A DNA stretch of 56,198 nt from Minisyncoccota bacterium. GTDB lineage: Bacteria; Patescibacteriota; Minisyncoccia; Phycocordibacterales; GWA1-40-21. A program made the translations under genes and the position numbers. Where the stretch lies: NCBI GenBank assembly GCA_036171775.1, contig JAVHRR010000006.1, positions 1 to 56,198 on the forward strand, written 5' to 3'. Position 1 is the stretch's first letter. Each line of letters opens with the position of its first letter. Below, piece after piece: positions 4,321 through 34,148 of the stretch. The notes beneath the pieces are model-generated. The model saw nothing but the letters and a program-made list of their open reading frames with translations. It searched no databases and was not told the origin of the DNA.

Positions 4321-4395
4321 GGCCTTATCGTCTAACGGTTAGGACACGGCCTTCTCAAGGCTGGAATCGGGGTTCGATTCCCCGTAAGGTCACCA
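4321..4395 (+). tRNA. tRNA-Glu (anticodon CUC), CCA encoded
   Basis: Manual cloverleaf: acceptor GGCCTTA/TAAGGTC, D arm GTCT/GGAC, anticodon arm CGGCC-TTCTCAA-GGCTG, T arm CGGGG-TTCGATT-CCCCG, discriminator A plus CCA. Confidence 0.9.
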
Positions 4396-4521
4396 TCAAG
4401 AGCTAGCACGAATACGTTATGTAATTAGAGCGCCCGAGAATAGTAATATTCTCGATTACATCGCATTCACCAGCTGGCACCAGAATTACCCAAATTTGTT
4501 TAATCTTGTATAATACCTAAT

Positions 4522-4890
4522 ATGAAAAAAGAAATGTTTTTAAAAATTGGTAAATATGGTAGACCAGTATTTTGGTCTTATCTTATGGTCATTTCTTCTT
4601 ATTTTATTATTATTTTTACTAAAAGAAATATTTTTGATGGATTGTTTGAATTAAAATACATATTTGTTGACATCTTAACTTATACCTTATTATTAATGGT
4701 TTTTATTTTTTCATTTTATAATGTCACTCACCCTTACATAAACAAAGATAGTAATGATGAAAATGATTCACATTGGGCGACAGGTTTGTGTATTCTGATG
4801 CCAATTATAATAATAGAATTATTACTTATACGTTTTTTTAATTTTGATTTAATTGGATATATTTTTAAACTACTAAATCATTACAATTAG
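4522..4890 (+). CDS. Hypothetical membrane protein (122 aa)
   Basis: Several hydrophobic helices. TATAAT at 4509-4514 ends 7 nt before the ATG (leaderless-type). No family recognised. Confidence 0.55.
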   Translation: MKKEMFLKIGKYGRPVFWSYLMVISSYFIIIFTKRNIFDGLFELKYIFVDILTYTLLLMVFIFSFYNVTHPYINKDSNDENDSHWATGLCILMPIIIIELLLIRFFNFDLIGYIFKLLNHYN

Positions 4891-4996
4891 ATAATACAAA
4901 TAAGATATTCAAACTCGCTCAATACTTAGGTTAAATTATATTACTATTTTGTATAATTAGGTTACATTCAGAAGCTATCACTAGACGGTATTAGTT

Positions 4997-7426
4997 TTAA
5001 TAAATATAACTGATTTTTTGTGCTTCATGCCACATTACTTTTACTCCATATGGTTCTAATTTTTCTTGCAGAAGTTTGATATTATCTTCAATAAGCTTTG
5101 TTTTTTTATCATCATAGGATGAAAATAGAAGGATATTTGGTCTAATTTGTTTTGCAAGCTTGAAAGCTTCTTCAAAGTGTTTTGCCTTAAATAAGGATGA
5201 GCTTTGTTTAACCTCACCCATTATAAATTGTCCATCTTGTATACATACAATATCTAGATCCCCTAGATGTTTGTAGTCTTTTTTCTGTTTTTTAAATAAA
5301 TCAAGACTTGGACTATATATAAATGAGGAATGCGCATCATCTTGTAATTCCCCAAGCGTAAGAAGAACTGGAACTAATCCATGCTGTCTGACTCCACTCT
5401 CAACTAAATTATTTAACCTATATAACCAAGATGGATCTGGATTTAAATCAAAAATATTTCCACAACCCTTACATTCAATTTTTTGTTTAATCTCATCAAC
5501 GTGCAACCAGTTTGAATATCCACACGAAGTACAATGAGGCTTCAACCCCATTAGTAAAACTTTGCTATCAACTAAATCCTTAATTTCTCTATAAACATCT
5601 TCTTTAAATTGAAGTTTGCTCTTTGAATCTATTACTTCACTTTTACCTTGAGCTTTTAGAAATTCTTGTACTAATTTTATTTTTTCTCTCAAAAAGAAAA
5701 TTAAATCAGCCTCTCGACCTGATTTACCATATTCTTTTGAAGTAAGTAAAATATACTCAGCTAACCATTTGAATTCCTCTTCTCTCTCAATTTGATCTTT
5801 AGGTATTGTTCTTAAATAATTTTTTAATTTACCAAATATTACAGCCTTTTTCTTATTATCAGAAGCCGGCGTACTTAAAGAAAGAATTTCAAACATCTTT
5901 CTCCAATAAGGTTCTCTGAATTGATGATAAGCTTGTCCCAATCCACCAAATAGTCCAATAAGACCCTGCAAATAACGTCCTTTATCTGATCTTTGAGTGG
6001 TAAAATATATTTTTTGGTTAATAACCGTTTGTCTAGGATCTCCTGTAAATGAGGGGTTATTGTGACCAAAAATTAAAGATGAAATAATATTTTTATCCTT
6101 TGGTATTTTAAAATCTAATTTTAATTCATCCGTTTTAAAAAAAGATTTTGCTCCCATAACGACACTAGGAACACCATTCCTTAATATTCTAGCTATGCTC
6201 TGTGGGAAAAATAATCGAGTTAGGCGATTACGATTAGGAAGCCTCCACCAATGACGTATATTTGTATTTTGATATCTCTCTGGATGATATTGTATATATA
6301 CATCCAACATCCAATTCCCTGGATTAACACCGTCTGGAAAAATTGGTTCATCGATAACAATAGTTCCTTCATTACCATATGCTTGATATAGAGTCATACC
6401 ATCTTTTAAACTAAAATAATCTTTATTTTGACCATAGTTTGGAAACAGTTCTTTCGGTGGTAAAATAACTACATTTTTGCCACACCACGATCTCTCACCG
6501 AGTATACCTGCAATCTTTTTCAATCTATCTTCCTTAATAGAAAAACTAATAAATTGAAGCATCTGGTTATTGTTGTTGCCAGTTCGAGAAGCTTTTTGTT
6601 GAAAAAATTGCTGTAATCCATTTCTTAATTTATCATTTTCTGCAACCTCGGTTGATAACCAAAAATGACAAATATCCCTACGCATCCATTGGGGAATCAT
6701 TAGAATCCTATTCCAATAATGTAATAGATCGTAAGGTGAATCACCAACTATTACTGTAAAATATTCACTTTCATGATTATAGGATATATCTCTTATTTCA
6801 TTTGGAACTGTAGATAATTGTATTGGAAATACATAATTTTTATGTATATCTCCTAACTCAAGCAAGGTAGTATTTACACTCTCGTCTGTGTTTAAAGTAT
6901 AAACATTTTTATTTTGAATCTTTTTTCCCATTTGATCAAGAAAATAATCTTCATATGTACCAAAATTAAAATGTATAAACTCTTTCAATGTAGAAGATGT
7001 TAAGTCCTTAATATTAAATAATACAAAAGGTCTTTTTTCATTAAAGTAAGTGGAGGACTTATTAATCAACTCTTCTGTAGGATGATTAATTGTTGGAAGT
7101 TGATTATGAAAACTTATCCCTGTTTGGAGATTATTGATTTCTACAATATATGGAGAAAGTCTATTCTCTATTTTTTCAATAAAACTTTTAGATGGAGTAA
7201 ACAAGAAAATAACAGAATCAGGGTCAAAATCTTTTATAAAATTCCACGATTCTTTTGATAAATCATCGTTATTTGAAAAAACGATTGGATTAAATCTACC
7301 ACCATAATGCTTAGTGTTGATATCAAAGAGGTTCTTAAATAAATCTTTGGTAAAATCCTTAGGTTTAACTATAAAAACTGTTTTTATCAGGCGCTTATTA
7401 AAATATATTGGGTATGGTGATTCCAT
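4997..7426 (-). CDS. Large uncharacterised protein (809 aa) with C-terminal Zn-ribbon and PD-(D/E)xK-like nuclease signature
   Basis: It has CTSCGYSNW...ECKGCGN (CxxC-x17-CxxC), then GDLDIVCIQDGQFIMGEVKQSSS (D-x12-E-x-K). No P-loop, helicase or MTase motif was seen in the N-terminal ~620 aa. Confidence 0.8.
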   Translation of the reverse strand: MESPYPIYFNKRLIKTVFIVKPKDFTKDLFKNLFDINTKHYGGRFNPIVFSNNDDLSKESWNFIKDFDPDSVIFLFTPSKSFIEKIENRLSPYIVEINNLQTGISFHNQLPTINHPTEELINKSSTYFNEKRPFVLFNIKDLTSSTLKEFIHFNFGTYEDYFLDQMGKKIQNKNVYTLNTDESVNTTLLELGDIHKNYVFPIQLSTVPNEIRDISYNHESEYFTVIVGDSPYDLLHYWNRILMIPQWMRRDICHFWLSTEVAENDKLRNGLQQFFQQKASRTGNNNNQMLQFISFSIKEDRLKKIAGILGERSWCGKNVVILPPKELFPNYGQNKDYFSLKDGMTLYQAYGNEGTIVIDEPIFPDGVNPGNWMLDVYIQYHPERYQNTNIRHWWRLPNRNRLTRLFFPQSIARILRNGVPSVVMGAKSFFKTDELKLDFKIPKDKNIISSLIFGHNNPSFTGDPRQTVINQKIYFTTQRSDKGRYLQGLIGLFGGLGQAYHQFREPYWRKMFEILSLSTPASDNKKKAVIFGKLKNYLRTIPKDQIEREEEFKWLAEYILLTSKEYGKSGREADLIFFLREKIKLVQEFLKAQGKSEVIDSKSKLQFKEDVYREIKDLVDSKVLLMGLKPHCTSCGYSNWLHVDEIKQKIECKGCGNIFDLNPDPSWLYRLNNLVESGVRQHGLVPVLLTLGELQDDAHSSFIYSPSLDLFKKQKKDYKHLGDLDIVCIQDGQFIMGEVKQSSSLFKAKHFEEAFKLAKQIRPNILLFSSYDDKKTKLIEDNIKLLQEKLEPYGVKVMWHEAQKISYIY

Positions 7427-7527
7427 CAGTCAATTATAATCTTTTTAAGCTTTTTTGCATTATTTATCTTCTTCTAGAACTGATAGTGAATTACAAACAT
7501 TTTTAAACATGCTATGATTTAAAAACA

Positions 7528-8691
7528 ATGACTAAAGCAGAAATAATAGAGGTTCTTGCCAAACTTGGATACAAAACAATACAACATAAAAAATTTGGTG
7601 ATTTAATTGAAATGGACGCTGAGGATGCTTTTGTTTTTTCTTCAATTATTGGATCGTCATACTTAATCTATCCGTATGGTATTACCATGAAAGGAAGATA
7701 TGAGGTCTTTATTCATCGTGCACTTTTTTCGGATGGCTATTATATATATTCCCCAGGGTTATTCGGAAGAAATATAGAAGGAAAATTAATAGAGGAAAAT
7801 TCTGCCGATATGTTGCTTAAAAAATATCCTGCTGTTTTTAAAAATAAAAAATATATTTATATTGAGGATATTAAGACGAAAAAACTTAGCAATGTAGAAA
7901 ATAATATTTTTAATTTAATTAAAAGCGAAAAAGAAGATCCAAGTAATTATTTAGTTTATAAAAATTTTGAATCTGGCGCTTCAGCAGAATCTCTTTTTGA
8001 GTATTTGGCTAGTATGGAATTTATAAAAAGTGGCTATATTACTGAAAACCAAGTTCCCTGGTTTCAACAGAATTTAAAACATAATGGTAAAACCTTACAA
8101 GGAGGCATACCAGACTTTTCAGCATTTCACTGCAGGGTCTCATCGTATTTAAAATCTTTAGGAATCATTACTGAAAATAGAGGCGTATCCATTACTTTGC
8201 TTCCTGTAATTAAAAACTTTAGAGTAATTAAGAATGATGATTCAATAAAGACAAAGACACAATATGAATTAATTATTGGAGAAGTAAAATCATCTAAATC
8301 AAGTCTTGCTGCTGCAACAGTTCAAATTAAGAAATATGGAGAAGTACAGTTAGCCAATAAATTATTCACAATAATTCCAAACGTAGCTGATAATCAAATT
8401 GATTTTGTGGGTGAAATGTTTGTTGAAAACAATACTTTTAAAGTTAAAGGGTCAAATGTGGATATTACAATTGATAAAGATCGACAATCTCATGATGACG
8501 AATGGATAAGTAATTATATAAAAATTCTTTTATTGGGTAATTTGCCTTTTAAGAAAATAGTCGACTTTATTGAAATATACAGAAAAAATACAAATCAAAC
8601 TTTGTTAGAAAATTATGAGGCTGTACATTTATTGGATGCAGTTATAATGACGCAAGATAAATATTTTTTTGAGTATTTTATAAAAAATTAA
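7528..8691 (+). CDS. Hypothetical protein (387 aa), candidate PD-(D/E)xK restriction endonuclease subunit
   Basis: ESLFEYL..., GGIPDFSAF and ELIIGEVKSSKSSL. The GEVK-x-S-x-SL block resembles IMGEVKQSSSL in the 809-aa protein. Extended -10 TGCTATGAT at 7510-7518. Confidence 0.7.
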   Translation: MTKAEIIEVLAKLGYKTIQHKKFGDLIEMDAEDAFVFSSIIGSSYLIYPYGITMKGRYEVFIHRALFSDGYYIYSPGLFGRNIEGKLIEENSADMLLKKYPAVFKNKKYIYIEDIKTKKLSNVENNIFNLIKSEKEDPSNYLVYKNFESGASAESLFEYLASMEFIKSGYITENQVPWFQQNLKHNGKTLQGGIPDFSAFHCRVSSYLKSLGIITENRGVSITLLPVIKNFRVIKNDDSIKTKTQYELIIGEVKSSKSSLAAATVQIKKYGEVQLANKLFTIIPNVADNQIDFVGEMFVENNTFKVKGSNVDITIDKDRQSHDDEWISNYIKILLLGNLPFKKIVDFIEIYRKNTNQTLLENYEAVHLLDAVIMTQDKYFFEYFIKN

Positions 8692-8695
8692 ATTT

Positions 8696-9769
8696 ATGGC
8701 ATACACTAGCGATCTTAGAGTAAAAAATATTTTGAAGGAAGTTGACATAGAAGTCAGAAAGATTTTAGCTGAAAAAGAAATAACTGATAGGCTTAATTTA
8801 AGAATATATGATGAATCTGACGAAGATGCATTGTCATGGAATAATGGGGGTTTGGCATTTTCTGATCCAAAAACTGGACGAGATCTTGGCGCAAACGATG
8901 GAGCATGGTCTATTGATAATTCATATCCATTAATAGTGGTAGAAGGAACATTTGGTACTGAAAGAGGTCAGTTTGGAGATGGACAACTAAATCGTATAAG
9001 CCATTCCCTCGGTGTAGCATTAAACGGTTATGTTGGTGTTACTCTGGTTCCTTATAAAGGACAGTCTTTTGTTAAAAAAGGTAGTAGAAAAGATATAATT
9101 AATAAAAAAATCAATTACTCAAACGGTTTGTTGCATAAAGGAATGGCCACACTTGCTCTAAGTTTCTCAAAAAACAATACTGGAAAATTTTTAATTGTTG
9201 ATCCATATGAAAAAAACTTACTTAGAGATTTAATAGTTGAGGCAACACTTAAACATTTAGGTAGGAAAAATAACTTTGACTCTATTGTTGATCGAATTAT
9301 AAAAAATATGACAGATTATCTTGGTAAATCTGTTTATGGCGCCAGGAGTAAACAAACAATCAAAACTATATACGATGAGTCAGGAAAAACTATTCCTGGA
9401 AAAGCTAGATTTTATACACAAAATATTGCAGCCCTAACCACTTCAACAAAAAGAGATGCACACGGTTTGTTAGGAAAGAATTTGATTGAACTATACTCAA
9501 CAAAAGAAAATTTATATTCGATTTTTATACGTCTTACAAAGGACGATATAGAGCTTTTGAGAAATAGAAGATCGAAGGAATTTTCATTTATTCTTAATAA
9601 TCCGAAGATAAAAGTTAAGTGTATTGACGATTTGATATTTACTGATTTAAAGGTTTTTAAAGACGTTATGGCCTTTAAGGATAAAAATTTACATCAAGAA
9701 AGTGAGAAAGCTTTAATTGGTGAAATACAAAATGGTTTTAATGCCGGGACAATAAGAATTCGATTATAA
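8696..9769 (+). CDS. Hypothetical protein (357 aa), possible second nuclease or specificity subunit of the R-M-like cassette
   Basis: Starts 4 nt after the previous stop and converges on the MTase genes with a 6-nt overlap. PLIVVEGTFGTERGQ is the only acidic-core candidate. No family recognised. Confidence 0.65.
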   Translation: MAYTSDLRVKNILKEVDIEVRKILAEKEITDRLNLRIYDESDEDALSWNNGGLAFSDPKTGRDLGANDGAWSIDNSYPLIVVEGTFGTERGQFGDGQLNRISHSLGVALNGYVGVTLVPYKGQSFVKKGSRKDIINKKINYSNGLLHKGMATLALSFSKNNTGKFLIVDPYEKNLLRDLIVEATLKHLGRKNNFDSIVDRIIKNMTDYLGKSVYGARSKQTIKTIYDESGKTIPGKARFYTQNIAALTTSTKRDAHGLLGKNLIELYSTKENLYSIFIRLTKDDIELLRNRRSKEFSFILNNPKIKVKCIDDLIFTDLKVFKDVMAFKDKNLHQESEKALIGEIQNGFNAGTIRIRL

Positions 9770-11329
9770 AATAAAAGGTTTAATTTTATATTCAAATAAA
9801 AATCTATTCATAAGATAATCAAAAATATCTGAATTATTTTTATACCCAGCCTTTTTTGCTTCTTCAGTAATTTGTTTTGTGATTTCTTGAGTTAGGTCAG
9901 ACAAAGTAATGTTTTTCTTGGTTTTATTTTTTCTAAAATTAAAAACGAGAAAACATTGTGAATTTTTATTTGTTGCATGCTGACTTGATGTTTTTGAATT
10001 AGAAATTAGCCTAATTGGTAAATTTGAAATAATTGGATCAAATTTTGAACTTAAAATTGCTTGCTGCAAATATTCCCAATGTTCTAAATTTGGATGATGA
10101 AAAACTAGGGTTAATACGGATCCCTCTTTTAATATCCTGTGCGCTTCGTCAAGAAATTTTCTAAATTTATGAGCATAATTTTTTATATCTTTACCTTGAT
10201 GTTTACTCACAATCATTTCATTCTCAAAATTAGTTTTTGATCCTAGCCAAGACTCATAAACTATATTTAATTCTGCATAATTAAGAATGTCTGAATATGG
10301 TGGATCAGTATAAATATAATCAATTGAATTACTTTCAATATTAGGTAAGTTGTCTGCACTACCTTTAATGAAGTTTGTTACATAAGGATAATCATTTTTA
10401 AATATTTCTGAATTACCTTTAAGAATTATATTGAATTTATTTTCGAAATTCGAACTTACATTTGTGTCCTTTATTAGTGGTGGTATATAAAATGTTCCCA
10501 TTTTAATAGAAGTGTTTTCATAATCTCTATATCTACTCATTAATGATGAATTAAATAATATTGAGGTAAATATAAAGGTAAATAATTGTTTAGTTTCCTT
10601 ATTTTTAATTTTATTTATTTCTTCAAAAATTATTGATAAAGCCGTTAGATTTCTATTGGAATAAAGTTGATAAACTTTTTTCACTCCCTTTTTATAATTT
10701 CTTTTTGGTTCTTGACCAAAAAAATCATCTTTTGGATAGAAGTGCTTCTTATAATCTTCTGTCTTCCATTTTTTTATATCCTTTTTACTTGGTAATTTAA
10801 ATTGTTTATTTTTGGCACATGAACATTCATAACAAATTTTTAACAGTCTGAATTCCTTAAAAAAATTATCTTTTTTAAATTTAGTCCCAGCTTTATTTTT
10901 TAATAATATTTCCCCCCTGTTTTCTTCATATAGCCCATCCTTACTCTGCCAAACTTCTCCGACAATAGAAAATCTAATTAACGCCTTATTACCACAGTGC
11001 TCGCATTCGGTAGTGTAATAATCATCTATTTTTTTTAAAATTCTGTTTTTTTCTTCAATGTAGTTCGATAGTTTTTTCTCAACGTGGTAATTTTGACAAT
11101 ATCCCTTTGAAATATGAACTGATACTGTGCTCAGATCATTTAATATTACTTTTCTACTTCTTAATATTGCGGCTACACCAGTCATGCCGGTACCACAGAA
11201 AGGATCCAAAATTACATCGCCGGCTTTAGTATTTTTTTCAATTAAAAACATAATCGGATCTATTGGTTGTTTAGTCCAATATGAGTGCATATTAAATATT
11301 GTTCCAGATTTTTTATATTTAAAGTCCAT
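9764..11329 (-). CDS. DNA methyltransferase (N6-adenine or N4-cytosine class, DPPY type)
   Basis: 521 aa. AdoMet motif I VILDPFCGTGMTGVAA is near the N-terminus, and catalytic motif IV is IDYIYTDPPYSD. A Cys-rich insert (CEHCGN...CYECSC) lies between them. Confidence 0.85.
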   Translation of the reverse strand: MDFKYKKSGTIFNMHSYWTKQPIDPIMFLIEKNTKAGDVILDPFCGTGMTGVAAILRSRKVILNDLSTVSVHISKGYCQNYHVEKKLSNYIEEKNRILKKIDDYYTTECEHCGNKALIRFSIVGEVWQSKDGLYEENRGEILLKNKAGTKFKKDNFFKEFRLLKICYECSCAKNKQFKLPSKKDIKKWKTEDYKKHFYPKDDFFGQEPKRNYKKGVKKVYQLYSNRNLTALSIIFEEINKIKNKETKQLFTFIFTSILFNSSLMSRYRDYENTSIKMGTFYIPPLIKDTNVSSNFENKFNIILKGNSEIFKNDYPYVTNFIKGSADNLPNIESNSIDYIYTDPPYSDILNYAELNIVYESWLGSKTNFENEMIVSKHQGKDIKNYAHKFRKFLDEAHRILKEGSVLTLVFHHPNLEHWEYLQQAILSSKFDPIISNLPIRLISNSKTSSQHATNKNSQCFLVFNFRKNKTKKNITLSDLTQEITKQITEEAKKAGYKNNSDIFDYLMNRFLFEYKIKPFIL

Positions 11330-12438
11330 TATTTTTTCGTCATAATCATTATTCGATCGTGCTTTTGCTCTTTGCTTCTTTTCTGTACAGATTTATTCAT
11401 TGGTATGGCATCTTCTATAATTGCATGACAAACAAACCCATTGTTTTCAAGTATAGACTTAAGAGTATTTGCAGTATTTATAACTTTTTTTCCTTTAAAG
11501 CAATCCCCGACAATAAAAACACAATATCCTCCTACCTTTAAAACTCTTTGCATTTCTTTTATACATAAAGTCATTTCATCAAGATAAGAATCAAATTGTT
11601 GAATCAACTTTTTTCTTAATTTTCCGTTTTCTTCAGGATCATAATGTCCAAGAATAGCCAAACGAAGTCTATGAGAACCAACATAATCCAACGTATCATA
11701 ATAAGGAGGGCTGGTAATTATATGATCAACGGAGTTATCTTTAATTGGTAATTTTCTTGCATCATCAAAATAAACTTCCATTTTACCTGTTGTTGTAAAA
11801 CCATCCTTGTATGTTCTTTTGACTTTTTCAATCAATCTCGGAATAGCTTCTCTGTATTCTCCCTTATCATCTTTTCTTGGTTTATATGGTAACGTCCAAG
11901 CACATGGTTTAGATAAATGTCCTGGTCGATGTCCCTGACTAATGCCAGTTAGGCATCCCAACAAAAAATATTGTTTGTCTTTTTTAAGTTTTTTTATTAA
12001 AAATAATATTTCTTTCAGAGTTTCGTGATTATAATATTCTTTCACCCAATCTGGAATTTCTGATATCGATATTTTTTTAGTGTTTATTTTTATCTTATTT
12101 AAATATTTTATAAGATCATCTTTTGTGTGATTATTAAAACTTTTCGCTAAGGCAATTTGATATGCATATGGATTAAGATCAACTGCAATTGAATTCCTAT
12201 TCATTAACATAGCTTCTGTTGTAATAGTCCCTATACCACAAAAAGGATCCAGAACGATATCTCCTTTAGAACTAACATATTCAATTAAAAAATGTGCAAA
12301 AGATGGTTTAATTCTTCCCACATAAGGTGAGATTCTATGTAACCAATTACCCCAACTTTGAATGGAATATGGTGGAAATGTCCATTCCTTTTTCGATATT
12401 TCAGCAACAACTTTTTTCACAGATTTATTCTTTAACAT
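11329..12438 (-). CDS. DNA methyltransferase (SPPY type, most likely N4-cytosine)
   Basis: 369 aa. Motif I is VLDPFCGIGTITTEA and motif IV is HIITSPPYYDTLDY. Its stop overlaps the start of the next MTase (TAATG), implying translational coupling. Confidence 0.85.
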   Translation of the reverse strand: MLKNKSVKKVVAEISKKEWTFPPYSIQSWGNWLHRISPYVGRIKPSFAHFLIEYVSSKGDIVLDPFCGIGTITTEAMLMNRNSIAVDLNPYAYQIALAKSFNNHTKDDLIKYLNKIKINTKKISISEIPDWVKEYYNHETLKEILFLIKKLKKDKQYFLLGCLTGISQGHRPGHLSKPCAWTLPYKPRKDDKGEYREAIPRLIEKVKRTYKDGFTTTGKMEVYFDDARKLPIKDNSVDHIITSPPYYDTLDYVGSHRLRLAILGHYDPEENGKLRKKLIQQFDSYLDEMTLCIKEMQRVLKVGGYCVFIVGDCFKGKKVINTANTLKSILENNGFVCHAIIEDAIPMNKSVQKRSKEQKHDRIMIMTKK

Positions 12439-12485
12439 GTTTTGATTATATCAAATATTTGAATCGGGGCAAGCCTAGTTAGATA

Positions 12486-13814
12486 CTATAATACATTTTT
12501 TAATATAACCTTCTGATTTTTAATATAAATAGTATTTGTTAGACATCTAAGAAACTCCCTCTTTTCCTCTAATGATCCTTCTTGAAGAATAAACTTTGCA
12601 TAGTTTCTAATATCTATATCTTTTACTATTATTGGTGTTTTGCTTCCCAATAACATTTGTTCAAACTTTTTAAATCTTTTTACCTCATTTGTAATTTTTT
12701 CTTTCATAGGCACGGTTTGTATTTCTAGATCGTCAATTAAATCTTGAAGTTGTTTTATGAGATCATCCTCATTAATAAATCCGCAAGGACATTTTGAATC
12801 TCTTATCCTTGTACATTTATAATAAACGTAACGATGGGTATTACCGTTCTTTTGAACTTTAAACTTTTCATCAGCTGTAATACCAGATCCACATAACCCA
12901 CAGGTCATTATCTTGGTAAATGCAAATTCCTTTTGTTGTGATCTGGGCTGTAATGTTTGATTCGTAATTTGAATTTGTACTTGATCGAAAAGTTCTTTGG
13001 TAATAATCGGTTCATGAGATCCTTGATACCAATGTCCTGAATCTTTCGGATACTCAAATTTTCCATAATAGAAAGTATTTTCTAGAAGCTTATATATATT
13101 ACCCAAACTCAAATGCATATTAGTTTCAGTTTTGAAATTAATATCGTCTTTGAGCCAATGATAGACTTTTCTTCCACTCCAATGGTCATTACCAATCTTT
13201 TCAAATATTTGTTTGATAACAGGCGCTCTATCTGGATCATGAATACTTTGACATTTTCTGTCTGTTCTTTTTTCTTTAAAATATCCTGTGGGAGGTCTGC
13301 ATGGCCATAACCCCATCTCAACTCTAGCTTTCAATCCACGTTTTACATTTATGCTTTTGTTGTCATTCTCCAATTTAGCTTGTGAACAAAGAATCATAAG
13401 TAAAAACTTTTCATTAGGAGAATTAGAAAAAGTTTGTCCATATGTTTGAATATGAATTAATTTTTTCTGATCCATAAAATCAACGAGTGATCCCAAATCT
13501 CCAGCATTTCTGCTTAACCTATCTGGTGCCCAAGTGAGAATTCCGTTATATGTTCCATTGCGTATATCTTCAAGCAATTCCTTGAATATCGGTCTTTGTC
13601 CCGAATCTTTAGCTGAATGGGATTCACGCTTGATTGCCACCACATTGAGCTTTAAATGCTCTGCTATAGTGGTCATTTCCTTAACTTGAGAATCTATCGA
13701 AAGTACCTGTTTTTCTTCCTGTTCGGTCGATTTACGAGCATATAAACAATATTTGATCCTAGTTTCGGATATCACTATTGGACTGTATATTTTACCTACA
13801 ATATTCGTTTCCAT
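12486..13814 (-). CDS. Large serine recombinase (phage-integrase type)
   Basis: 442 aa. It has an N-terminal resolvase catalytic domain (YARKSTEQEEKQVLSIDSQ), a recombinase domain, a Zn-ribbon CGLCGS...YYKCTR and a C-terminal coiled coil. Confidence 0.9.
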   Translation of the reverse strand: METNIVGKIYSPIVISETRIKYCLYARKSTEQEEKQVLSIDSQVKEMTTIAEHLKLNVVAIKRESHSAKDSGQRPIFKELLEDIRNGTYNGILTWAPDRLSRNAGDLGSLVDFMDQKKLIHIQTYGQTFSNSPNEKFLLMILCSQAKLENDNKSINVKRGLKARVEMGLWPCRPPTGYFKEKRTDRKCQSIHDPDRAPVIKQIFEKIGNDHWSGRKVYHWLKDDINFKTETNMHLSLGNIYKLLENTFYYGKFEYPKDSGHWYQGSHEPIITKELFDQVQIQITNQTLQPRSQQKEFAFTKIMTCGLCGSGITADEKFKVQKNGNTHRYVYYKCTRIRDSKCPCGFINEDDLIKQLQDLIDDLEIQTVPMKEKITNEVKRFKKFEQMLLGSKTPIIVKDIDIRNYAKFILQEGSLEEKREFLRCLTNTIYIKNQKVILKNVL

Positions 13815-14162
13815 GTATCAATTAATGACAGAGAAAGTGTCTTCTGCTAAGTCTTAATCGTTGGTAATACGTTGGCAACTTTGCTTAGCAGAACTACTTA
13901 AGTACGTTATAATTTATAGACTAATAATTGAAAAAAGGTTATTATGTTCAAGACAACTGAATAAGAAAGTAATCTAAACTAGTAAGTAATTACTGGCATG
14001 ATGAAAAGAAAGTCCTGGAAAGACATAAAAAACCCATCATATGGGGTTGTCTTTCCAGGCTATATCGGGAAACCGGTATAAATGACTTCGGTCGTTAACC
14101 ATGTGGTGGGCTTTTTGTTTACCCACCATAGGCTTTTATTAAAACAAGATATAAAAATTATT

Positions 14163-14816
14163 ATGAATAATGAAAATCAATCTGTTGAAGTTAAGACTAA
14201 AAATATAACTTTTGGTTTGGTTATCGCTTGGATATTGGGTGTTGTATTTACAATTGCAGGTTTAACCAGTTTGTTTACAAATGTAGTATCAGGAATTTTA
14301 TTTTTAGTTATGGCTTTCATAACTCTCCCTGTTACAGATGACATTATTAAAAATAAATTAAAGATCTCTCTTTCAAAAGGATTAAAAATATTTTTAGTAA
14401 TAGTTTTGTTGGCAGTAGCCGGTAGCCTTTCTTCAAAAAGTAATCCTACACAAACATCTTCTTCAACAAATAATAATGTTCCTGTAGTAAACGTTCCAAA
14501 AACTCCAGAATTAACAGTTACTGCAATAAAATTAAGTGAAGATTATAAAGCCAATGAAGTTTCAGCTGACGCAAAATATAAAGGTAAATTTATTGAAGTT
14601 TCTGGAGTTATAGACAACATTGCAAAAGACATCATGGATACTCCATATGTAACTCTAAAAACTGATACATATTCAATCGTTGGTGTTCAATGTATGTTTG
14701 AAAAAGAATCAGAACCACAATTAGCCACTCTTTCAAAAGGTAAAAGCATAACTCTTCAAGGAGAGGTTTCTGGAAAGATGATGAACGTTATCATTAGAGG
14801 ATGTATCATAAAATAA
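14163..14816 (+). CDS. Membrane protein with C-terminal OB-fold (tRNA_anti-like) domain
   Basis: The ORF track starts at 14082. The ATG at 14163 (MNNENQ) precedes two TM helices. C-terminus ELTVTAIKLSEDYKANEVSADAKYKGKFIEVSGVI...VQCMF...LSKGKSITLQGEVSG fits the tRNA_anti-like OB pattern. Confidence 0.65.
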   Translation: MNNENQSVEVKTKNITFGLVIAWILGVVFTIAGLTSLFTNVVSGILFLVMAFITLPVTDDIIKNKLKISLSKGLKIFLVIVLLAVAGSLSSKSNPTQTSSSTNNNVPVVNVPKTPELTVTAIKLSEDYKANEVSADAKYKGKFIEVSGVIDNIAKDIMDTPYVTLKTDTYSIVGVQCMFEKESEPQLATLSKGKSITLQGEVSGKMMNVIIRGCIIK

Positions 14817-14831
14817 CAACTTCTGATCTAT

Positions 14832-16361
14832 TTAGTTAACGTCAACATAATCAGGGTAATATATTGTATCTCCACCTAACCAAAACATTATAATCGTTGG
14901 TTCATTGGAGTGTTTATCAAGGGTCGAGTTAATCAATAGAGAAAAAGCGTCTGCAAGATCATCGTGTTTCTCGACACCGAATCCAACAAGCTGTCTGATT
15001 AATTCTTCGCAACCTTGTCTTGGGAATTTTATTATTCCTGATTTTATTACAGTAGAGGTGAGAGCCAATCTTGTCCTCTTATCTCCTTTGGGTTTTACTG
15101 CTTCTGCTTCGACACCGTGCATTTCAAGCATTTGAGGTAATGCTTCTTGATAAGCGACACTCTCGACAAAAAATTTATCTCTGTGATTTGGCATTTGTGT
15201 TTCTTTGAAATTTTTCATCAAATCAACCTGTGCAGGAAAATTTAATTTTTTCGCAATTGGATTCGGTAATATATATATTTTTAATTTTTCACTCCTTGAA
15301 TATATATGAGCAGAAACTACAGCTGTAAAATCAGCGGAATCTTTTTCTGATATAGCAAGATCAACTCCAGCGTATGTACCTCGATATCCCATATGTTCTA
15401 CTCCCGGTAATTCATCATAATATTGTATCCATTCTGGATAAATGACCTGATCATCACTTGGAATAATGCGAAGTAAATATTCTCTTTGCCATGCTATCTC
15501 ACTTCCAACTTTTTTCTTTTCTATTTCAATATCTTCAGGTGTCGGATATTTACCTGGCCATAAACAAACATCATTTTCATTCTTAAGTGGAAATTCCAAG
15601 AAAGTTCCTTCTGTTTTTTCAGTCTTAATATCTTCTTTTATTCTCATTAACAGTGAATCTTCATGAAGTAAGTTTCCAATTACAATTACGCGAGTACTCT
15701 TGTCACCACATGGGATAACTTCGCTTTTAAACCAGTTATATGTTTTGTTACGACCTTCTCTTGTTTTTGTTGAACTAATATCTTCAACGTCGTCGCAAAT
15801 TATTAGATCGGGTCTATATGCACCATGGCGAAGTCCACGAATAGACTGCTCAGCTGAAGCAACAGTGATACGGGCATTAAAACTTTTAAATACAATTGAT
15901 CCAGAACCCCATTCATCATTATTTTCTTCTTCGTATGGCCACAGATCGTCTTTAAGCATCTGATTATTTTCTAATTCACGTCTCATATTCATCATGTGTT
16001 GCTTTGCCTGTGCTTTTGTTTGCGTAAGAATAAGTACGAATTTCTTTTGTGGTTTTCCAAGAATTGACCAGATCGGAAAAGAAGTCGTAACGATCGTGGA
16101 TTTACCAGATCCACGAAATGCTACAACGCAAAAATGTTTTAACGATTCGTTTTCGGTTAAAGAAATAATTTGTCTTTGAAAATCAGCCGTTGCATATTTC
16201 ACATAATGTGCAAAATAAAAATGAAAGAAGAACCAGTGACTTTCTTTTGTTATGGCCGCTCTAATTTTTCTGTCCGCAATCATCTTTTCTACGAGATCTT
16301 GCGGAATGACATTGTAATTTTCCATATATTTATTTGTTATCGCTCTCAACGGAAATGACAT
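14832..16361 (-). CDS. Phage terminase large subunit
   Basis: 509 aa with Walker A AFRGSGKST, Walker B LIICDDVED and a C-terminal RNase H-like nuclease block HDDLADAFSLL. Confidence 0.85.
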   Translation of the reverse strand: MSFPLRAITNKYMENYNVIPQDLVEKMIADRKIRAAITKESHWFFFHFYFAHYVKYATADFQRQIISLTENESLKHFCVVAFRGSGKSTIVTTSFPIWSILGKPQKKFVLILTQTKAQAKQHMMNMRRELENNQMLKDDLWPYEEENNDEWGSGSIVFKSFNARITVASAEQSIRGLRHGAYRPDLIICDDVEDISSTKTREGRNKTYNWFKSEVIPCGDKSTRVIVIGNLLHEDSLLMRIKEDIKTEKTEGTFLEFPLKNENDVCLWPGKYPTPEDIEIEKKKVGSEIAWQREYLLRIIPSDDQVIYPEWIQYYDELPGVEHMGYRGTYAGVDLAISEKDSADFTAVVSAHIYSRSEKLKIYILPNPIAKKLNFPAQVDLMKNFKETQMPNHRDKFFVESVAYQEALPQMLEMHGVEAEAVKPKGDKRTRLALTSTVIKSGIIKFPRQGCEELIRQLVGFGVEKHDDLADAFSLLINSTLDKHSNEPTIIMFWLGGDTIYYPDYVDVN

Positions 16362-16728
16362 GAGAAGCCAGCTTCAAAGCTTCTCTAACAGTAGCTTCTT
16401 GCTCCGGAGTCAATTCATCGTTGTGTTTTATTTTAGTAGTAATTTCGACCTTATCTCTAAACTTTGGATTTCTATGTCTTAGCCAGAAAGCAAGAGCAGG
16501 CCAGCTTTTTTCTTTGATCATATTGAGAAGTTGTCCCTCACTTATATCATTAATAAAAGCTTCACCCTCTGCCATTGCCAAATCCATATCTTCTAAAAAC
16601 TTCTCATCTTGATTTCTCCATCTATAAACTGAATTTCTTGATACTCCAATTTTTTCGCAAGCAATTTGAACTATTGGAACCTTTTTCAAACTTTCCAGAA
16701 ATTTATCTTTAACTCTATTTTTCTTCAT
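16330..16728 (-). CDS. HTH protein, candidate terminase small subunit
   Basis: 132 aa with an N-terminal HTH (IACEKIGVSRNSVYRWRN). It overlaps the terminase large-subunit start by 32 nt. Confidence 0.5.
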   Translation of the reverse strand: MKKNRVKDKFLESLKKVPIVQIACEKIGVSRNSVYRWRNQDEKFLEDMDLAMAEGEAFINDISEGQLLNMIKEKSWPALAFWLRHRNPKFRDKVEITTKIKHNDELTPEQEATVREALKLASHVISVESDNK

Positions 16729-18019
16729 ATATGTTTTTGATTAGTTTTGCTTTTTTGCCCGACACCTTTTCATAATGATTTATTATGAGCTGACAAAAAA
16801 CGGGTTCAAGTTCACAAACGTAAGCAACTCTTTTTAATTGTTCGCATGCCACCAAAATACTTCCTGAACCTGCTGTTAGATCAAGTACTACATCTCCAAC
16901 CCTTGTACATCTCTTAAGGGCTTTGTAGTGCAATAGAGGGCTCTTTTCGGTCGGATGTGAGTATTGATTACTAGGTAATCTCTTTACCAACATAAGATTT
17001 GAGTTATCACTAATCTCTTGGTGCAAATCGTTACCATTTGTCATATCTTTGTTTTGAATTTCATTCAGATCATTAAATCTCTTACATAAGTATGGTGATC
17101 CTACTGTTCCATATACGGCAAATTCAGTCGCTTTATTGAAAGCTACTGTTGGTGTCGGTGATGAATTGTTTTTTATCCAGACCAGTAATCTTTTTGAATC
17201 TATACCTAATTCTTGATATAAAGTTTGAAGCAGCCACACGTATCTTTCGTCGCACCAGAATATAACATGGGCATCTTTTTTGGTTACAGATAAAGCATTT
17301 TCCAAAAGAGTTCTGACAAAAGTTTTATAATCTTCATTAGTTTTATTGTCATTAGTAGTTCCACCATAGTGTTTCTTGTTTCCAACGCCCTTATTATATG
17401 AGAGGCCTATATTAAATGGGATATCATCGTCAACAAAGTCCGCCCTCACACCATTCATTAGCTCATTCACTATTTCTTTATTAAGAGATGAACCACAAAT
17501 AAGTCTGTGTTTACCCAGTTCAAAAAGATCTCCTTTTTTTATTTTAATTTTACTTCTTTTTATTTTCTTAAGTTCCTCTTCATCACTCCATTCGCTATTT
17601 GTTTCTTTTGGTTTTTCATCAAATATGTGGCTCAAATCTAAATCATCAAATCCAGCAAGTTTAAGATCGTCGAGATCAAAGTCTGTAGAAAGCATTGACC
17701 AATCCCAAGATCCTCCTGATCTATTTGAAGTTAAAAGATAATCTTTAAACTCTGCTTTTGTGAGTTGCCTAGACGGAACTCTAACTTCTATTTTTTCTTC
17801 ACCTCGACCGAGCAATATCAAAGCTTGAATCCTCTGATGACCCGCAACGATAACCCCATCCTTATTGATTGCAGGTAGTTCAGCTACATTGAACTTACTT
17901 AAACTTCTCTTGAGACCCTCCATTTGCTCTTCGCTAATAACACGGGGATTTTTTGCATAAGGTAGTAAATCCTTAACCTTTCTTAATTCTGTACACCAAA
18001 CTATTTTATTATTTTTCAT
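16715..18019 (-). CDS. ParB-like nuclease domain fused to a DNA methyltransferase (phage type)
   Basis: 434 aa. ParB-N block is AELPAINKDGVIVAGHQRIQA and the linker is DLFELGKHRLICGSS. It has a degenerate motif IV (DDDIPFNIG) and motif I (VVLDLTAGSGSILVACEQL), in beta-class order. Confidence 0.8.
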   Translation of the reverse strand: MKNNKIVWCTELRKVKDLLPYAKNPRVISEEQMEGLKRSLSKFNVAELPAINKDGVIVAGHQRIQALILLGRGEEKIEVRVPSRQLTKAEFKDYLLTSNRSGGSWDWSMLSTDFDLDDLKLAGFDDLDLSHIFDEKPKETNSEWSDEEELKKIKRSKIKIKKGDLFELGKHRLICGSSLNKEIVNELMNGVRADFVDDDIPFNIGLSYNKGVGNKKHYGGTTNDNKTNEDYKTFVRTLLENALSVTKKDAHVIFWCDERYVWLLQTLYQELGIDSKRLLVWIKNNSSPTPTVAFNKATEFAVYGTVGSPYLCKRFNDLNEIQNKDMTNGNDLHQEISDNSNLMLVKRLPSNQYSHPTEKSPLLHYKALKRCTRVGDVVLDLTAGSGSILVACEQLKRVAYVCELEPVFCQLIINHYEKVSGKKAKLIKNIYEEK

Positions 18020-18981: not shown

Positions 18982-20232
18982 TCAATTTTTTCTTTTTTCA
19001 GATTGTCTTTCTTTGTAATTTTTCTTTCTTAAACTTAGATGATATTGGTGAAATTCATCATCATCCTTCTCATTATCCATCTGTGTAAATTGAAAGGAAC
19101 GCCCTCGTCTATATGGACCGCACATTTCCGCAAATTCGGCTTTAAACCACTCAAGCGTTAGATATTCACTGCCAGTGTTAGTTTCTATATTATATTCAGG
19201 ATCATCGGGTGTTCTTCCGTATTCATCCATAGCACCAGGACCTCCTGGCCCACCACCCCATATTATTTCTCCACCTGGATGAATGGGCCTTGGATCTGGC
19301 ATAAGTAAATACCCATTTCCAAAAGAGTTCCATTTCAAATCAGGTATCTTCTTTTCTGGATATAACCACTCTTCCTTAGCCGCAGCAATATATTTATAGG
19401 CTCTTTTTTTAATTATATAATTAATTTCACACACTTCTTGTTCTGTAAGATGTCTTTCAATTTGAGTATCAGTGATCTTATTAATCGTTGAATGAAAATA
19501 ATTTGGATTGGGACGAAGTTTTCTTTCTGATTGGTATGGATTTCTTACCCACGAAAGGTTTGTTAATATAAGAATCTTATTCAACGAAAGAGGAAATATG
19601 GTTTGAGTTGCTTGGAGCAAAACATCTGGATCACTAGAGCCACAACATAAATCAGATCCTGGTGGACATTTTCTATTATATACAGTCACAGGATGATCCG
19701 AAATAATAAATTTTGTATTTGAATTATAAGCATCAGCAATTTGCCAAACGCACTCAGCCCAAGTTGCGCCATAGATACCCTGTAATTCAATCATTTTGTT
19801 TAGAATAATATTTTTATTATTTGATCTAACTTTATTACCCAAAAAATTAAGACCTTTGGGGGTTCGAAGCTTTTGTGTACTTAAATATAGTATTATCTCA
19901 ATAAAATAATTTTTCCAATCTTCTGGAGGATATTTAAAATTTTCAAAATACTCTACCGCTCCTCTCCCTTTAATATCAATTTTTCCAAAAAAAGATCGTT
20001 CTATCTCAATAGACGTTATCGTTTTAAAATTTCTAGTATATAAATCCCTTTCACAAAAACTCGCTTTTGTACCTTGAATTCTTAAATCCTTATCGGTATG
20101 TTTAATCCCATTCGAATCAGTAAAACTACAAGGATTTAAATCTAAATAGCAGAGTTTATTCTCGTCATTTAATAAAAATTTCTTTTGATACCACTGTGGC
20201 ACATAGTGATTATTTCTGTAATCATTTGGCAT
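18982..20232 (-). CDS. DUF4238 domain protein
   Basis: 416 aa. The N-terminal NNHYVPQWYQKKFL matches the DUF4238 hallmark HYVPQFYL. Confidence 0.7.
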   Translation of the reverse strand: MPNDYRNNHYVPQWYQKKFLLNDENKLCYLDLNPCSFTDSNGIKHTDKDLRIQGTKASFCERDLYTRNFKTITSIEIERSFFGKIDIKGRGAVEYFENFKYPPEDWKNYFIEIILYLSTQKLRTPKGLNFLGNKVRSNNKNIILNKMIELQGIYGATWAECVWQIADAYNSNTKFIISDHPVTVYNRKCPPGSDLCCGSSDPDVLLQATQTIFPLSLNKILILTNLSWVRNPYQSERKLRPNPNYFHSTINKITDTQIERHLTEQEVCEINYIIKKRAYKYIAAAKEEWLYPEKKIPDLKWNSFGNGYLLMPDPRPIHPGGEIIWGGGPGGPGAMDEYGRTPDDPEYNIETNTGSEYLTLEWFKAEFAEMCGPYRRGRSFQFTQMDNEKDDDEFHQYHLSLRKKNYKERQSEKRKN

Positions 20233-32305: not shown

Positions 32306-33115
32306 TTATTTCTTATTAGATAAAAGCACTTCTACCCATTTAAGCTCTGCAATATTTATTGGGTTTTTAAATAAAATTGTTTGAAATGAATCTGATTCTT
32401 TAAACTCAATTTTCTCAATAACACCAAAAATGTTGGCTGAAATCGATGGCATTGTTATAGAATCTCCCTCTTTAACATCAATTTCTCTTGGCGTTTCAAC
32501 CTTGAAATTGCCACTTCCCAAACCTGTCGCTTCTTTTTCAATATTGTTATTTCCAATCAATATCTTCACTTTTTCACCTGGTGATGAATATAAAATAATT
32601 TTAGAACTTCCACTGTAAACTTCAGATACATACCCTATAAAAGTATTTCCGTCAGCTAGCACTTTGTCTCCAATCGTTACACCGTTTGATGCACCGACAT
32701 CTATTATGAGGGTGTCATAGGCTGACAAAAACGGCTTAACAAGCACGACACTAAGTAAAAATTTCTGATCAGAATTTTTTCTGTTTAAAACATTCTTAAG
32801 ATCTTCATTTTCTTTTTTTAGTAGACTAAACAATGCATATTCTTTCTCTTGTAATTTAATCTTGTCCTTAAGTAAACTATTCTCTTTCAATAAACCGATT
32901 TTTGAGTTGAAAATACCAAAATTATTAGAAAAAAAGTAATTTATATTATTTCGAACGGTCCACAGTGGTGAGCCTGTCATAAATAATATATTTCTTGTCC
33001 ATGACATAGAAAAAATTACTATAATAAAAAAAATCCCAAAAACTGGTAATAAAGAGTTTCTGTTTGGTCCTTTTCCTAAATAAGAATTATTTCTTGGGTG
33101 GAAGCTCATCTTCAT
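32306..33115 (-). CDS. mreC: Rod shape-determining protein MreC
   Basis: 269 aa with a TM helix, a coiled coil (LKKENEDLKNVL) and a beta-rich C-terminal domain. It follows mreB. Confidence 0.8.
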   Translation of the reverse strand: MKMSFHPRNNSYLGKGPNRNSLLPVFGIFFIIVIFSMSWTRNILFMTGSPLWTVRNNINYFFSNNFGIFNSKIGLLKENSLLKDKIKLQEKEYALFSLLKKENEDLKNVLNRKNSDQKFLLSVVLVKPFLSAYDTLIIDVGASNGVTIGDKVLADGNTFIGYVSEVYSGSSKIILYSSPGEKVKILIGNNNIEKEATGLGSGNFKVETPREIDVKEGDSITMPSISANIFGVIEKIEFKESDSFQTILFKNPINIAELKWVEVLLSNKK

Positions 33116-34148
33116 TTTGAATTAATGATTCCATATAAAGTTCCATATTTTCTAAAATAATACCGGTACCTCTTGCAACAGCCGTAAGTGGATCGTCTAC
33201 AAACTGTACAGGAATTTTTAAATACTCGCTAAGCAAAGTGTCCAAACCTTTTATAAGAGCTCCCCCTCCAAATAGAAATATTCCCTTTTGCATTATGTCT
33301 GTAAGGATTTCTGGTGGTGTTGTCTCTAGAACCTCTTTTGCTGCATCCACCAAACTTTCTATTGAAGCTGACATGGCTTCTCTTACATCTGAGTCTGTCA
33401 AAATAACCTCTCTTGGTAAACCAGTGATCAAATCTCTGCCTTTTATTGGGGCTTCCAAATGTTCTCCTGCTATAACTGCACCTATAGAAATTTTAATACT
33501 TTCTGCTGTTTTTTCACCAATCAAAATTTTAAATTCAGCTCTTACATAGCTTATGATGTCATTGTTTAATTTATCTCCTGCAATTCTCAAATTTTTTGAT
33601 CTAACAATACCACCCAAAGATATAACAGCTATGTCTGTAGTACCTCCTCCAATATCGATGACCATACTTCCAATGGGTTCGTTGGTAGGTAGACGAATAC
33701 CAATAGCTCCAGCCATAGGTTCTTCTACTATATGCACTTCTCTTGCGCCCGCATTTCTTGTGGCGTCTCTGACTGCACGGATCTCAACGTTTGTTACACC
33801 GGAAGGCACTCCAACTACAACGCGTGGTCCAAGCATCTTTGGAGAAAATTCCTCCGCTTTTCTAACTAGGTATGCAATCATTTCTTCTGTAACTTCAAAG
33901 TCTGAAATAACTCCGTCAACTAAAGGTCGTACTGCGACAATGTGCGGTGGTGTTCTTCCAAGCATTTCTCTTGCTTGTGTACCAACAGCAACAACTCTTC
34001 CTGTTTTTTGATTTAAAGCAACAACAGAAGGTTCGTTTATAACGATTCCTTTACCAGAAACATACACCAGGGTATTTGCAGTACCTAGATCTATTCCTAT
34101 ATCGTTAGATAAGTATTTATTCAGTTTTTTCTTAAATCTTTTAATCAT
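33087..34148 (-). CDS. mreB: Rod shape-determining protein MreB
   Basis: 353 aa with actin-fold motifs IGIDLGTANTLVY, DIGGGTTDIAV and LFGGGALIKGL. Confidence 0.95.
   Translation of the reverse strand: MIKRFKKKLNKYLSNDIGIDLGTANTLVYVSGKGIVINEPSVVALNQKTGRVVAVGTQAREMLGRTPPHIVAVRPLVDGVISDFEVTEEMIAYLVRKAEEFSPKMLGPRVVVGVPSGVTNVEIRAVRDATRNAGAREVHIVEEPMAGAIGIRLPTNEPIGSMVIDIGGGTTDIAVISLGGIVRSKNLRIAGDKLNNDIISYVRAEFKILIGEKTAESIKISIGAVIAGEHLEAPIKGRDLITGLPREVILTDSDVREAMSASIESLVDAAKEVLETTPPEILTDIMQKGIFLFGGGALIKGLDTLLSEYLKIPVQFVDDPLTAVARGTGIILENMELYMESLIQNEDELPPKK

Follow-up and report, generated by a model that had tools for sequence, protein, structure and literature searches.

What does the large protein encoded beside a tRNA-Glu gene in a Minisyncoccota bacterium do for the DNA that carries it? 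We analyzed a 56,198-nt stretch of contig JAVHRR010000006.1, called the window here, in which an open reading frame (ORF) of 809 codons runs from an ATG on the minus strand at positions 4997–7426. An earlier interpretation made from the DNA letters alone (the sequence-only reading) had proposed that its product is a candidate novel nuclease or defence effector. The ORF is real, and its product joins a familiar nuclease effector to an N-terminal module that is large and conserved but cannot yet be classified (Table 1). The nuclease part of the proposal is now supported by the fold of the C-terminal domain, whereas a role in defence is suggested by genomic context. An AlphaFold2 (AF2) model of the full protein, built on an alignment of its family, had a predicted local distance difference test (pLDDT) score of 86 and a predicted template-modelling (pTM) score of 0.82.

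The C-terminal zinc ribbon and nuclease domain

We aligned the window protein with 122 diverse homologues that were 19–49% identical to it. D70, C632, C635, C652, C655, D725 and E738 were invariant in this set, K740 was kept in at least 90% of the homologues, and position 723 was always D or E in a sub-alignment of the C-terminal region. The cysteines lie in a zinc-ribbon block, LLMGLKPHCTSCGYSNWLHVDEIKQKIECKGCGNIFDLNPDPSWLYRLN (residues 624–672), and D725, E738 and K740 lie in a motif block, DLDIVCIQDGQFIMGEVK (residues 723–740); the catalytic and cysteine residues are kept too in homologues from cultured Flavobacterium, Burkholderia and Rhodococcus. The sequence-only reading had correctly seen two CxxC motifs but had placed 17 residues between them, when the actual pattern is CxxC-x16-CxxC. 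Its D...ExK core, an assignment that it had made to depend on conservation among homologues, was borne out, and judged from this alignment the conservation of the C-terminal motif goes far beyond chance.

In the AF2 model, the nuclease domain comprises helices at residues 673–697, strands at 702–740, a helix at 748–761 and a strand at 765–770, a predicted arrangement that matches the α-β-β-β-α-β core fold of the PD-(D/E)xK superfamily. D725 opens one strand and E738 and K740 lie on the next, which is the canonical geometry; as in members of that superfamily, an acidic residue is predicted to open core strand 2 and a (D/E)xK motif to lie on core strand 3. Short strands flank both CxxC knuckles in the same model, placing the two knuckles on a β-hairpin pair as in a zinc ribbon. 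A Foldseek search of the PDB returned VC1899 at the top (1xmx; E 4e-4, probability 0.99), together with Cdn1 bound to cyclic tetra-adenylate (cA4; 9u49, probability 0.99), Can2 (8q3y, probability 0.89) and the restriction enzyme EcoT38I (probability 0.96–0.99); PDB entry 7e8r likewise scored 0.99, and weaker matches in BFVD were to entries named restriction endonuclease. A profile of the C-terminal 190 residues aligned ELDVATVVNNKLHIIECK of VC1899 with the family string elDlvcikdgkliigEvK at an E-value of 0.63 and in exact register. When 60 diverse members were scanned singly against Pfam, the recurrent matches were all weak and were to zinc-ribbon families (15, 9, 4 members and so on, with Zn_ribbon_IS1595 in 15 and a TFIIB-type ribbon in 9), NERD (6 members), Card1_endonuc (2) and PDDEXK_10 (2). 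The conserved residues, the confident model and the Foldseek matches together uphold the proposed zinc ribbon and, after it, the PD-(D/E)xK fold; the C-terminus belongs to that superfamily and lies closest to its Card1/Can2/VC1899 and NERD branches. This domain would be expected to cleave DNA in a metal-dependent manner.

The N-terminal module and the family that carries it

The N-terminal ~620 residues, in which the sequence-only reading had recognized no motif, match nothing in Pfam or the PDB, but they are not featureless. R12, G42-G43, D68-P69-D70, N154-F155-G156, G228, W238-N239, S294, D375, R413 and S480-x-x-G483 are invariant or near-invariant throughout the family, and because these polar and glycine residues are so widely kept, the pattern suggests a possible ligand-binding or catalytic pocket. 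A separate model of residues 1–480 had a pLDDT of 88.7 and a pTM of 0.90. Searched against the PDB, this model reached a probability of at most 0.38 and a TM score of about 0.2, to ANL adenylating enzymes and generic α/β proteins; such values were not accepted as evidence of homology to the adenylate-forming (ANL) enzymes or the other proteins. The ~480-residue fold has no Pfam model and no convincing match in the PDB or BFVD, and no Pfam family recurred in the N-terminal region of the 60 members. A word-indexed profile search with the N-terminal ~330 residues, run for fusions to alternative effectors, gave zero matches and likewise missed the family itself. Within the family alignment, sequence variation and indels are greatest in the helical domain at residues 481–620.

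The protein had also been called an orphan, mistakenly: the exhaustive profile search yielded 3,885 clusters at 50% identity (E≤1e-3), of which 792 reached E≤1e-30, and nearly every one of the top 150 clusters listed spans the whole profile and the full ~800-residue architecture. A word-indexed search returned 22 clusters at 90% identity, mostly full length (about 800–815 residues), 43–74% identical and from Patescibacteria or Parcubacteria assemblies. Relatives are also encoded by Bacteroidota (Marinifilum, Flavobacterium sp. Leaf82), Planctomycetota and Acidobacteriota. Others are borne by plasmids of Burkholderia glumae, Rhodococcus aetherivorans, Bradyrhizobium and Sphingomonas, and a collection scan run with a close alignment of the family found more in soil and freshwater metagenomes; the distribution is patchy and spans many phyla. 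The homologues listed all lack a source name and a precomputed Pfam domain. As the sequence-only reading had supposed, no characterized family covers the whole protein: single-sequence and profile hidden Markov model (HMM) searches against Pfam, NCBIfam, PADLOC, PHROGs and PDB sequences gave no significant match. Ten divergent members matched no Pfam family significantly, with sub-threshold zinc-ribbon matches in one of them only, and the known anti-phage defence models of PADLOC-DB 2.0 returned marginal Cas4 matches alone (E 0.036–0.04). Literature searches found no description of the family; work on defence in Patescibacteria names the genes LdgA and DdgA and gives no sequence data with which this family could be compared.

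Mobile elements, the window island and its restriction–modification cassette

We clustered 351 neighbouring ORFs from 34 loci. The sole widely common neighbour of the homologues is a large serine recombinase, which HMM searches placed within 10 kb of the homologue in 12 of the 21 loci having at least 8 kb of flank (about 10 of 19 without duplicates); this set includes a distant, 31%-identity member of the family, and its recombinases are down to 22% identical to that of the window. No gene is an obligatory partner of the family. Linkage to mobile elements is robust and linkage to defence islands is suggestive. Thus, the typical defence-island context described by the sequence-only reading holds for homologues as carriage on mobile elements, but the defence genes themselves accompany them in few loci and this part of the claim is anecdotal.

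In loci L001, L002 and L003, the recombinase is 75–78% identical to that of the window and abuts the homologue, which starts 41 bp after it in L001 and L002 and overlaps it tail to tail in L003. By nucleotide comparison, the window is collinear with these three loci apart from a 5-kb cassette between the recombinase and the 809-residue gene, and the homologue has the recombinase on one side and tRNA-Glu on the other in the window, L001 and L003, with the tRNA gene about 90 bp from the homologue in L001. The homologue of L003 (8775–13749) is inverted relative to the recombinase and is preceded by an extra gene for 369 residues, with tRNA-Glu adjoining this pair; set beside the window (4321–13814) and L001 (8641–12606), the arrangement may reflect recombinase-mediated inversion or independent capture. 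Between its recombinase and TerL, L003 also has an RVT_1 reverse transcriptase beside a bAvd gene (14512–15933), the signature of a diversity-generating retroelement.

In six Patescibacteria elements, the recombinase gene and a tRNA gene overlap at the 3′ end of the former (Table 1), which suggests a family of tRNA-targeting serine integrases with a coding sequence that runs into the attachment site. The tRNA-integrating elements, roughly 8–11 kb long, encode primases or helicases (AAA_25, Toprim_2, Prim-Pol) as well as the products of small accessory genes (Macro, ASCH, FtsK_gamma, SAM-dependent methyltransferase), and the homologue lies 4–7 kb from the recombinase, beyond the other genes of the element. 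A class I SAM methyltransferase of the Methyltransf_11/23/25 type is adjacent to the homologue or at most 1.6 kb away in L016 (9305–9970), L004 (13985–14698) and L024 (10274–11047), and in a Yonathbacteria-type subclade a 201-residue protein without a Pfam match is encoded 12 bp downstream of the homologue (L009 11697–12302; L021, L022, L023).

Homologues in other organisms have varied neighbours. On the conjugative plasmid pbghn2 of B. glumae (L042 2291–10368), the 834-residue WP_171467081.1 directly follows three consecutive tyrosine recombinases, arranged as a recombinase-in-trio, and an ORF of 174 residues, with a MazEF pair a few kilobases downstream. The 832-residue homologue on Rhodococcus plasmid pN1 lies among insertion sequence (IS) elements with a DUF4209 protein, and on a Pyrinomonadaceae contig AbiEii is encoded upstream and a DUF7380/DUF4209 protein downstream of the homologue. 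These DUF4209 proteins, in two unrelated organisms (L011 4627–6408, a Pyrinomonadaceae metagenome-assembled genome; L043 1007–2173, pN1), may be a coincidence or a loose association. A PIN protein is encoded near the Marinifilum homologue. The divergent 746-residue homologue of Flavobacterium sp. Leaf82 occupies a defence island with an OLD-family ATPase and UvrD helicase (Gabija-like), a STAND NTPase and Upx. In the Flavobacterium-type subfamily (about 23% identity), a 1079-residue STAND/AAA NTPase is encoded directly upstream in three loci (L012 6678–12196, L037, L039); the pair may be a two-gene variant, and the three loci may not be independent.

The window is a fragment of a Patescibacteria chromosome, because housekeeping genes fill it from about 22 kb on (Mur ligase, penicillin-binding proteins, three aminoacyl-tRNA synthetases, two MreB, an M50 protease, PriA-like, SerRS, DprA, TopA, RelA/SpoT and ParB). 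Between tRNA-Glu and about 21.7 kb, the GC fraction is 0.26–0.31, compared to 0.33–0.36, and the earlier placement of the gene in a tRNA-linked island beside restriction–modification genes and a recombinase was confirmed, the island being low in GC. tRNA-Glu is the probable integration site of this island. No att-type direct repeats or displaced tRNA fragments were found at the island, which is unsurprising for a serine recombinase. Because no capsid, portal or tail genes were detected in the island, it looks like a satellite-like or degraded element and not a complete prophage; it may resemble a phage satellite or be a remnant. Relatives of the window also have a satellite-like island with TerL and TerS. 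The island in the window encodes three DNA methyltransferases and also a DUF4238 protein; DUF4238 is a reported defence gene, although PADLOC gave no match to it here. In the chromosomal part of the window, two MreB paralogues lie within 7 kb (33087–34148 and 39863–40876), and a 501-residue protein (41223–42728) has an N-terminal HTH_3 domain fused to an EPSP-synthase/MurA-type domain.

Table 1. Coordinates of the 809-residue gene, the domains of its product and associated features (window positions unless a locus is named).
Feature	Position (nt)	Strand	Residues or composition	Basis and remarks
809-residue ORF	4997..7426	-	complete, ATG start	ORF list, full-length homologues, profile search, AF2 model; member of a large unannotated ~800-residue family
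N-terminal α/β domain 1	7127..7426	-	1–100; R12, G42-G43(-R44), D68-P69-D70	secondary structure of models, conservation
α/β domain 2	6437..7075	-	~118–330; N154-F155-G156, G228(-D-S), W238-N239, S294	alternating strands and helices in models
β-rich domain 3	5987..6409	-	~340–480; W372, D375, P397, R413	models, conservation
Helical domain	5567..5986	-	481–620; S480-D-K-G-x-Y-L-x-G488 motif at start, W508	seven helices in full model
Four-cysteine zinc ribbon, CxxC-x16-CxxC	5411..5557	-	C632, C635, C652, C655	translation; conserved W667 and N672 follow
PD-(D/E)xK nuclease domain, Card1/Can2/NERD-like	5024..5410	-	673–801	Foldseek, profile alignment, weak Pfam matches
Predicted catalytic core	5207..5260	-	D723-L-D725 ... 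E738-V-K740	translation, conservation
tRNA-Glu(CTC)	4321..4395	+		ARAGORN; conserved landmark next to the 809-residue gene in related elements
Divergent intergenic region	7427..7527		101 bp	coordinates; between 809-residue gene and cassette, 387-residue ORF starts at 7528
Four-gene restriction–modification cassette	7528..12438	+ and -	387 and 357 residues (+); 521- and 369-residue N6/N4 methyltransferases (-)	Pfam, PADLOC, recurrence in L017/L018
Large serine recombinase	12486..13814	-	Resolvase, Recombinase, Zn_ribbon_recom	Pfam
Predicted membrane protein	14082–14816	opposite strand	244 residues; C-terminal tRNA_anti-like OB domain	between serine recombinase and TerL
TerL	14832–16361			island
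TerS-sized ORF	16330–16728			island
ParB-type methyltransferase	16715–18019			island
DUF4238 protein	18982–20232			island
Recombinase/tRNA overlaps in other loci	L006 2618–4327; L009 1091–2716; L013 4122–5789; L015 6334–8137; L016 1245–2836; L024 1050–2789		tRNA overlapped: Tyr; His; Ala; Val; Ala; Leu	3′ end of recombinase gene

The sequence-only reading had tied the 809-residue gene to its divergent neighbour, proposing that the two carry related nuclease cores and share a control region. The string IMGEVKQSSSL from the 809-residue protein does recur as IIGEVKSSKSSL in the 387-residue protein, but as an isolated match. BLASTP of the two proteins aligned 16 residues at the ExK strand, 8 of them identical (E 0.14), a comparison of the family profile with the 387-residue protein by hhalign gave a probability of 19% over 27 columns, and the homologue sets are separate, with that of the 387-residue protein coming from Actinomycetota, Roseburia, Sulfurimonas and Flavobacteriaceae. 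On these values specific kinship was rejected, with no homology beyond the one ExK strand; the two proteins share at most membership of the PD-(D/E)xK superfamily. The unit of four genes, encoding 387-like and 357-like proteins and two convergent N6/N4 methyltransferases of about 527 and 377 residues, recurs in two unrelated contigs, a Sulfurimonas plasmid-like contig with Rep3, ArdA and RnlAB (L017) and a contig in which it lies beside a tyrosine integrase (L018), and there is no 809-residue homologue in either. None of the four genes occurs in 12 loci with such homologues, so the co-occurrence for which the earlier reading had suggested a survey was never observed. Because the 387- and 357-residue genes and the methyltransferases recur as a self-contained unit and are absent beside homologues, they are not part of the 809-residue system; the cassette is independent and was inserted between the serine recombinase and the 809-residue gene.

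The length of the divergent gap had been given correctly, but a shared control region is not supported, as relatives lack the cassette at this position. A promoter and terminator scan of the 101-bp region gave only generic sigma-70-like matches, fewer than in shuffled sequence, and the region marks a junction that arose when the cassette was inserted, with no demonstrable sharing of regulation. The 387- and 357-residue proteins belong to no Pfam family, the former having a weak Cas4-like ExK match, and the cassette is probably an uncharacterized two-subunit restriction enzyme with two methyltransferases.

Proposed function and its alternatives

We favour a self-contained sensor-plus-nuclease protein that is borne by mobile elements and acts in defence or inter-element exclusion, a proposal that we rate at an even chance. 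The role fits because the family has no obligatory partner, its catalytic residues are invariant and it occupies a cargo position on mobile elements. The N-terminal ~480 residues, consisting of the two α/β domains and the β-rich domain, would serve as a sensor or regulator through a conserved polar pocket (R12, GG42-43, DPD68-70, NFG154-156, G228, WN238-239, S294, D375 and R413). The helical domain would couple this sensor to the C-terminus, where the zinc ribbon may aid binding of nucleic acid and the Card1/NERD-type domain, with D725, E738 and K740, would cut DNA. Shedu proteins have a comparable architecture, in which an N-terminal sensing region is fused to a PD-(D/E)xK-type nuclease. Like Shedu (SduA, DUF4263) and the END nucleases, the window protein is a single-gene product from mobile or defence contexts that combines a novel or variable N-terminal region, proposed to sense, with a C-terminal nuclease of this type. 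In contrast to both, the 809-residue family shows no DUF4263, EndoIII or PADLOC SduA signal and its N-terminal region is conserved family-wide, not swapped between members; the architecture of the END nucleases (10.1101/2025.03.31.646159) also differs from that of the window protein.

Several observations weigh against this proposal. No family member has experimental or annotated evidence of function, no PADLOC model matches the 809-residue protein, and searches of IMG/VR and of GenBank phage records yielded no homologue. Because neither Pfam scans of the 60 members nor the fold search recognized a sensor fold in the N-terminal module, the label of sensor is conjectural, and the many invariant polar residues of the module would fit a second enzymatic activity equally well. 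Known defence genes are sporadic among 126 pooled neighbours, in which PADLOC detected five methyltransferases and two UvrD-like helicases, and support from defence islands therefore comes from few loci; the pooled output was dominated by redundant GajB models on two UvrD-type helicases and gave no usable estimate of enrichment. In L004, moreover, the homologue has an ordinary chromosomal setting beside a 999-residue UvrD/PDDEXK_1 helicase-nuclease, where a role in repair would fit too.

Four other explanations deserve weight, and the neighbourhoods bear most directly on one in which the protein serves the life cycle of mobile elements and not immunity, as an accessory that helps serine-recombinase elements in excision, integration directionality, replication or resolution. 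The frequent proximity of recombinases to homologues, even where the recombinases have diverged far from that of the window, would be expected of such an accessory, as would the direct adjacency or overlap of the two genes in L001 and L003; the inverted orientation in L003 was also counted in its favour, and the homologue is, besides the recombinase, the sole gene common to otherwise different element types. However, the distance and orientation of the recombinase vary, from overlap to 7 kb, the cassette in the window parts the two genes and disrupts neither, and homologues are also found with tyrosine recombinases, amid IS elements, or without any recombinase in defence-type and chromosomal settings. 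We consider this explanation unlikely, although it is the foremost of the four. Slightly less probable is a version of the defence proposal in which the N-terminal module reads modified or non-self DNA and the nuclease cuts it, as in a modification-dependent (type IV-like) restriction enzyme that needs no methyltransferase. The window methyltransferases lie in a separate cassette and no methyltransferase recurs widely among neighbours of the homologues, so the protein is not a type II restriction–modification enzyme; as in NERD-domain and Mrr/type IV-like nucleases, its PD-(D/E)xK domain is solitary and often found on mobile elements, the location of many type IV enzymes, with no obligatory methyltransferase. 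The matches of the C-terminal fold to EcoT38I and to restriction endonuclease entries in BFVD agree with this explanation, and a modular design of sensor and nuclease is established, for example in END nucleases (10.1101/2025.03.31.646159). On the other hand, the weak NERD matches extend to 6 of the 60 members only, no family threshold is reached, neither Pfam nor the fold search of the N-terminal model found a known reader of modified bases or other DNA-reading domain, and the nuclease would have to tolerate the marks of the three methyltransferases encoded in the window island. The unassigned N-terminal module may nevertheless be a reader of a new type.

The structural matches raise a different explanation, in which the N-terminal module binds a nucleotide signal produced elsewhere in the cell that switches the nuclease on. 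The best of these matches, VC1899, Can2 and Cdn1, are cA4-activated CARF nucleases (PMC7969007, PMC12825302), and the Card1/Can2/VC1899 group (Pfam Card1_endonuc, formerly DUF1887) shares with the window protein the PD-(D/E)xK fold, the register of the D...ExK motif (ELD...IIECK compared to DLD...MGEVK) and the order of a regulatory N-terminal region followed by a nuclease effector; the N-terminal domains of the window protein are moreover Rossmann-like α/β units with conserved glycine-rich and acidic loops. Compared to Card1 and Can2, however, the window protein is roughly twice the size; its nuclease is preceded by an inserted 140-residue helical domain and zinc ribbon, and its 480-residue N-terminal module has an unrecognized fold. 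No CARF domain was matched by Pfam in the 60 members at E≤1 and no SAVED domain was found in them, and neither appeared among the N-terminal fold matches, the best of which, at 0.38, were to adenylation domains of unrelated adenylating enzymes. No type III CRISPR–Cas system or other cyclase is encoded in the window island, no cyclase, Cas10 or CD-NTase gene recurs among neighbours of the 34 loci, and Patescibacteria mostly lack CRISPR–Cas (PMC12455944). With neither a CARF domain nor CRISPR linkage, the full-length protein falls outside the Can2/Card1 family, and we regard activation by a second messenger as very unlikely. Marginally more remote still is the capture by islands, through chance, of a cellular nuclease for DNA repair or recombination. 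Many PD-(D/E)xK enzymes are repair proteins, and L004, where other housekeeping genes also surround the homologue, is the sole locus compatible with this origin; a core gene would not have so sparse and patchy a distribution, mobile elements account for most of the well-flanked loci, and the island in the window is low in GC.

Returning to a sensor-plus-nuclease role in defence or exclusion, a fuller version can be put forward only tentatively, as we consider it somewhat less probable than not. In that version, the family would be a new and widespread single-gene system of immunity or inter-element conflict, in which a new sensor fold of ~480 residues recognizes a sign of infection or of foreign DNA and licenses the nuclease through the helical coupler, and the tRNA-integrating serine-recombinase elements of CRISPR-poor Patescibacteria would carry it as a staple cargo. 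Patescibacteria, also known as the candidate phyla radiation (CPR), have tiny genomes, mostly without CRISPR–Cas, and very few described defence systems (PMC12455944; PMC12366544). The family comprises thousands of sequence clusters of ~800-residue proteins that are absent from every curated domain library and are carried on CPR integrative elements, in defence islands and on plasmids of cultivable bacteria, and tractable homologues are available in cultivable hosts (B. glumae WP_171467081.1, R. aetherivorans WP_263510495.1 and Flavobacterium sp. Leaf82). If the family is immune in function, it would add a new sensor fold to the nuclease-based defences and would help to explain the cargo of CPR mobile elements; if its role lies instead in recombination of the elements themselves, large serine recombinases would have a new accessory factor.

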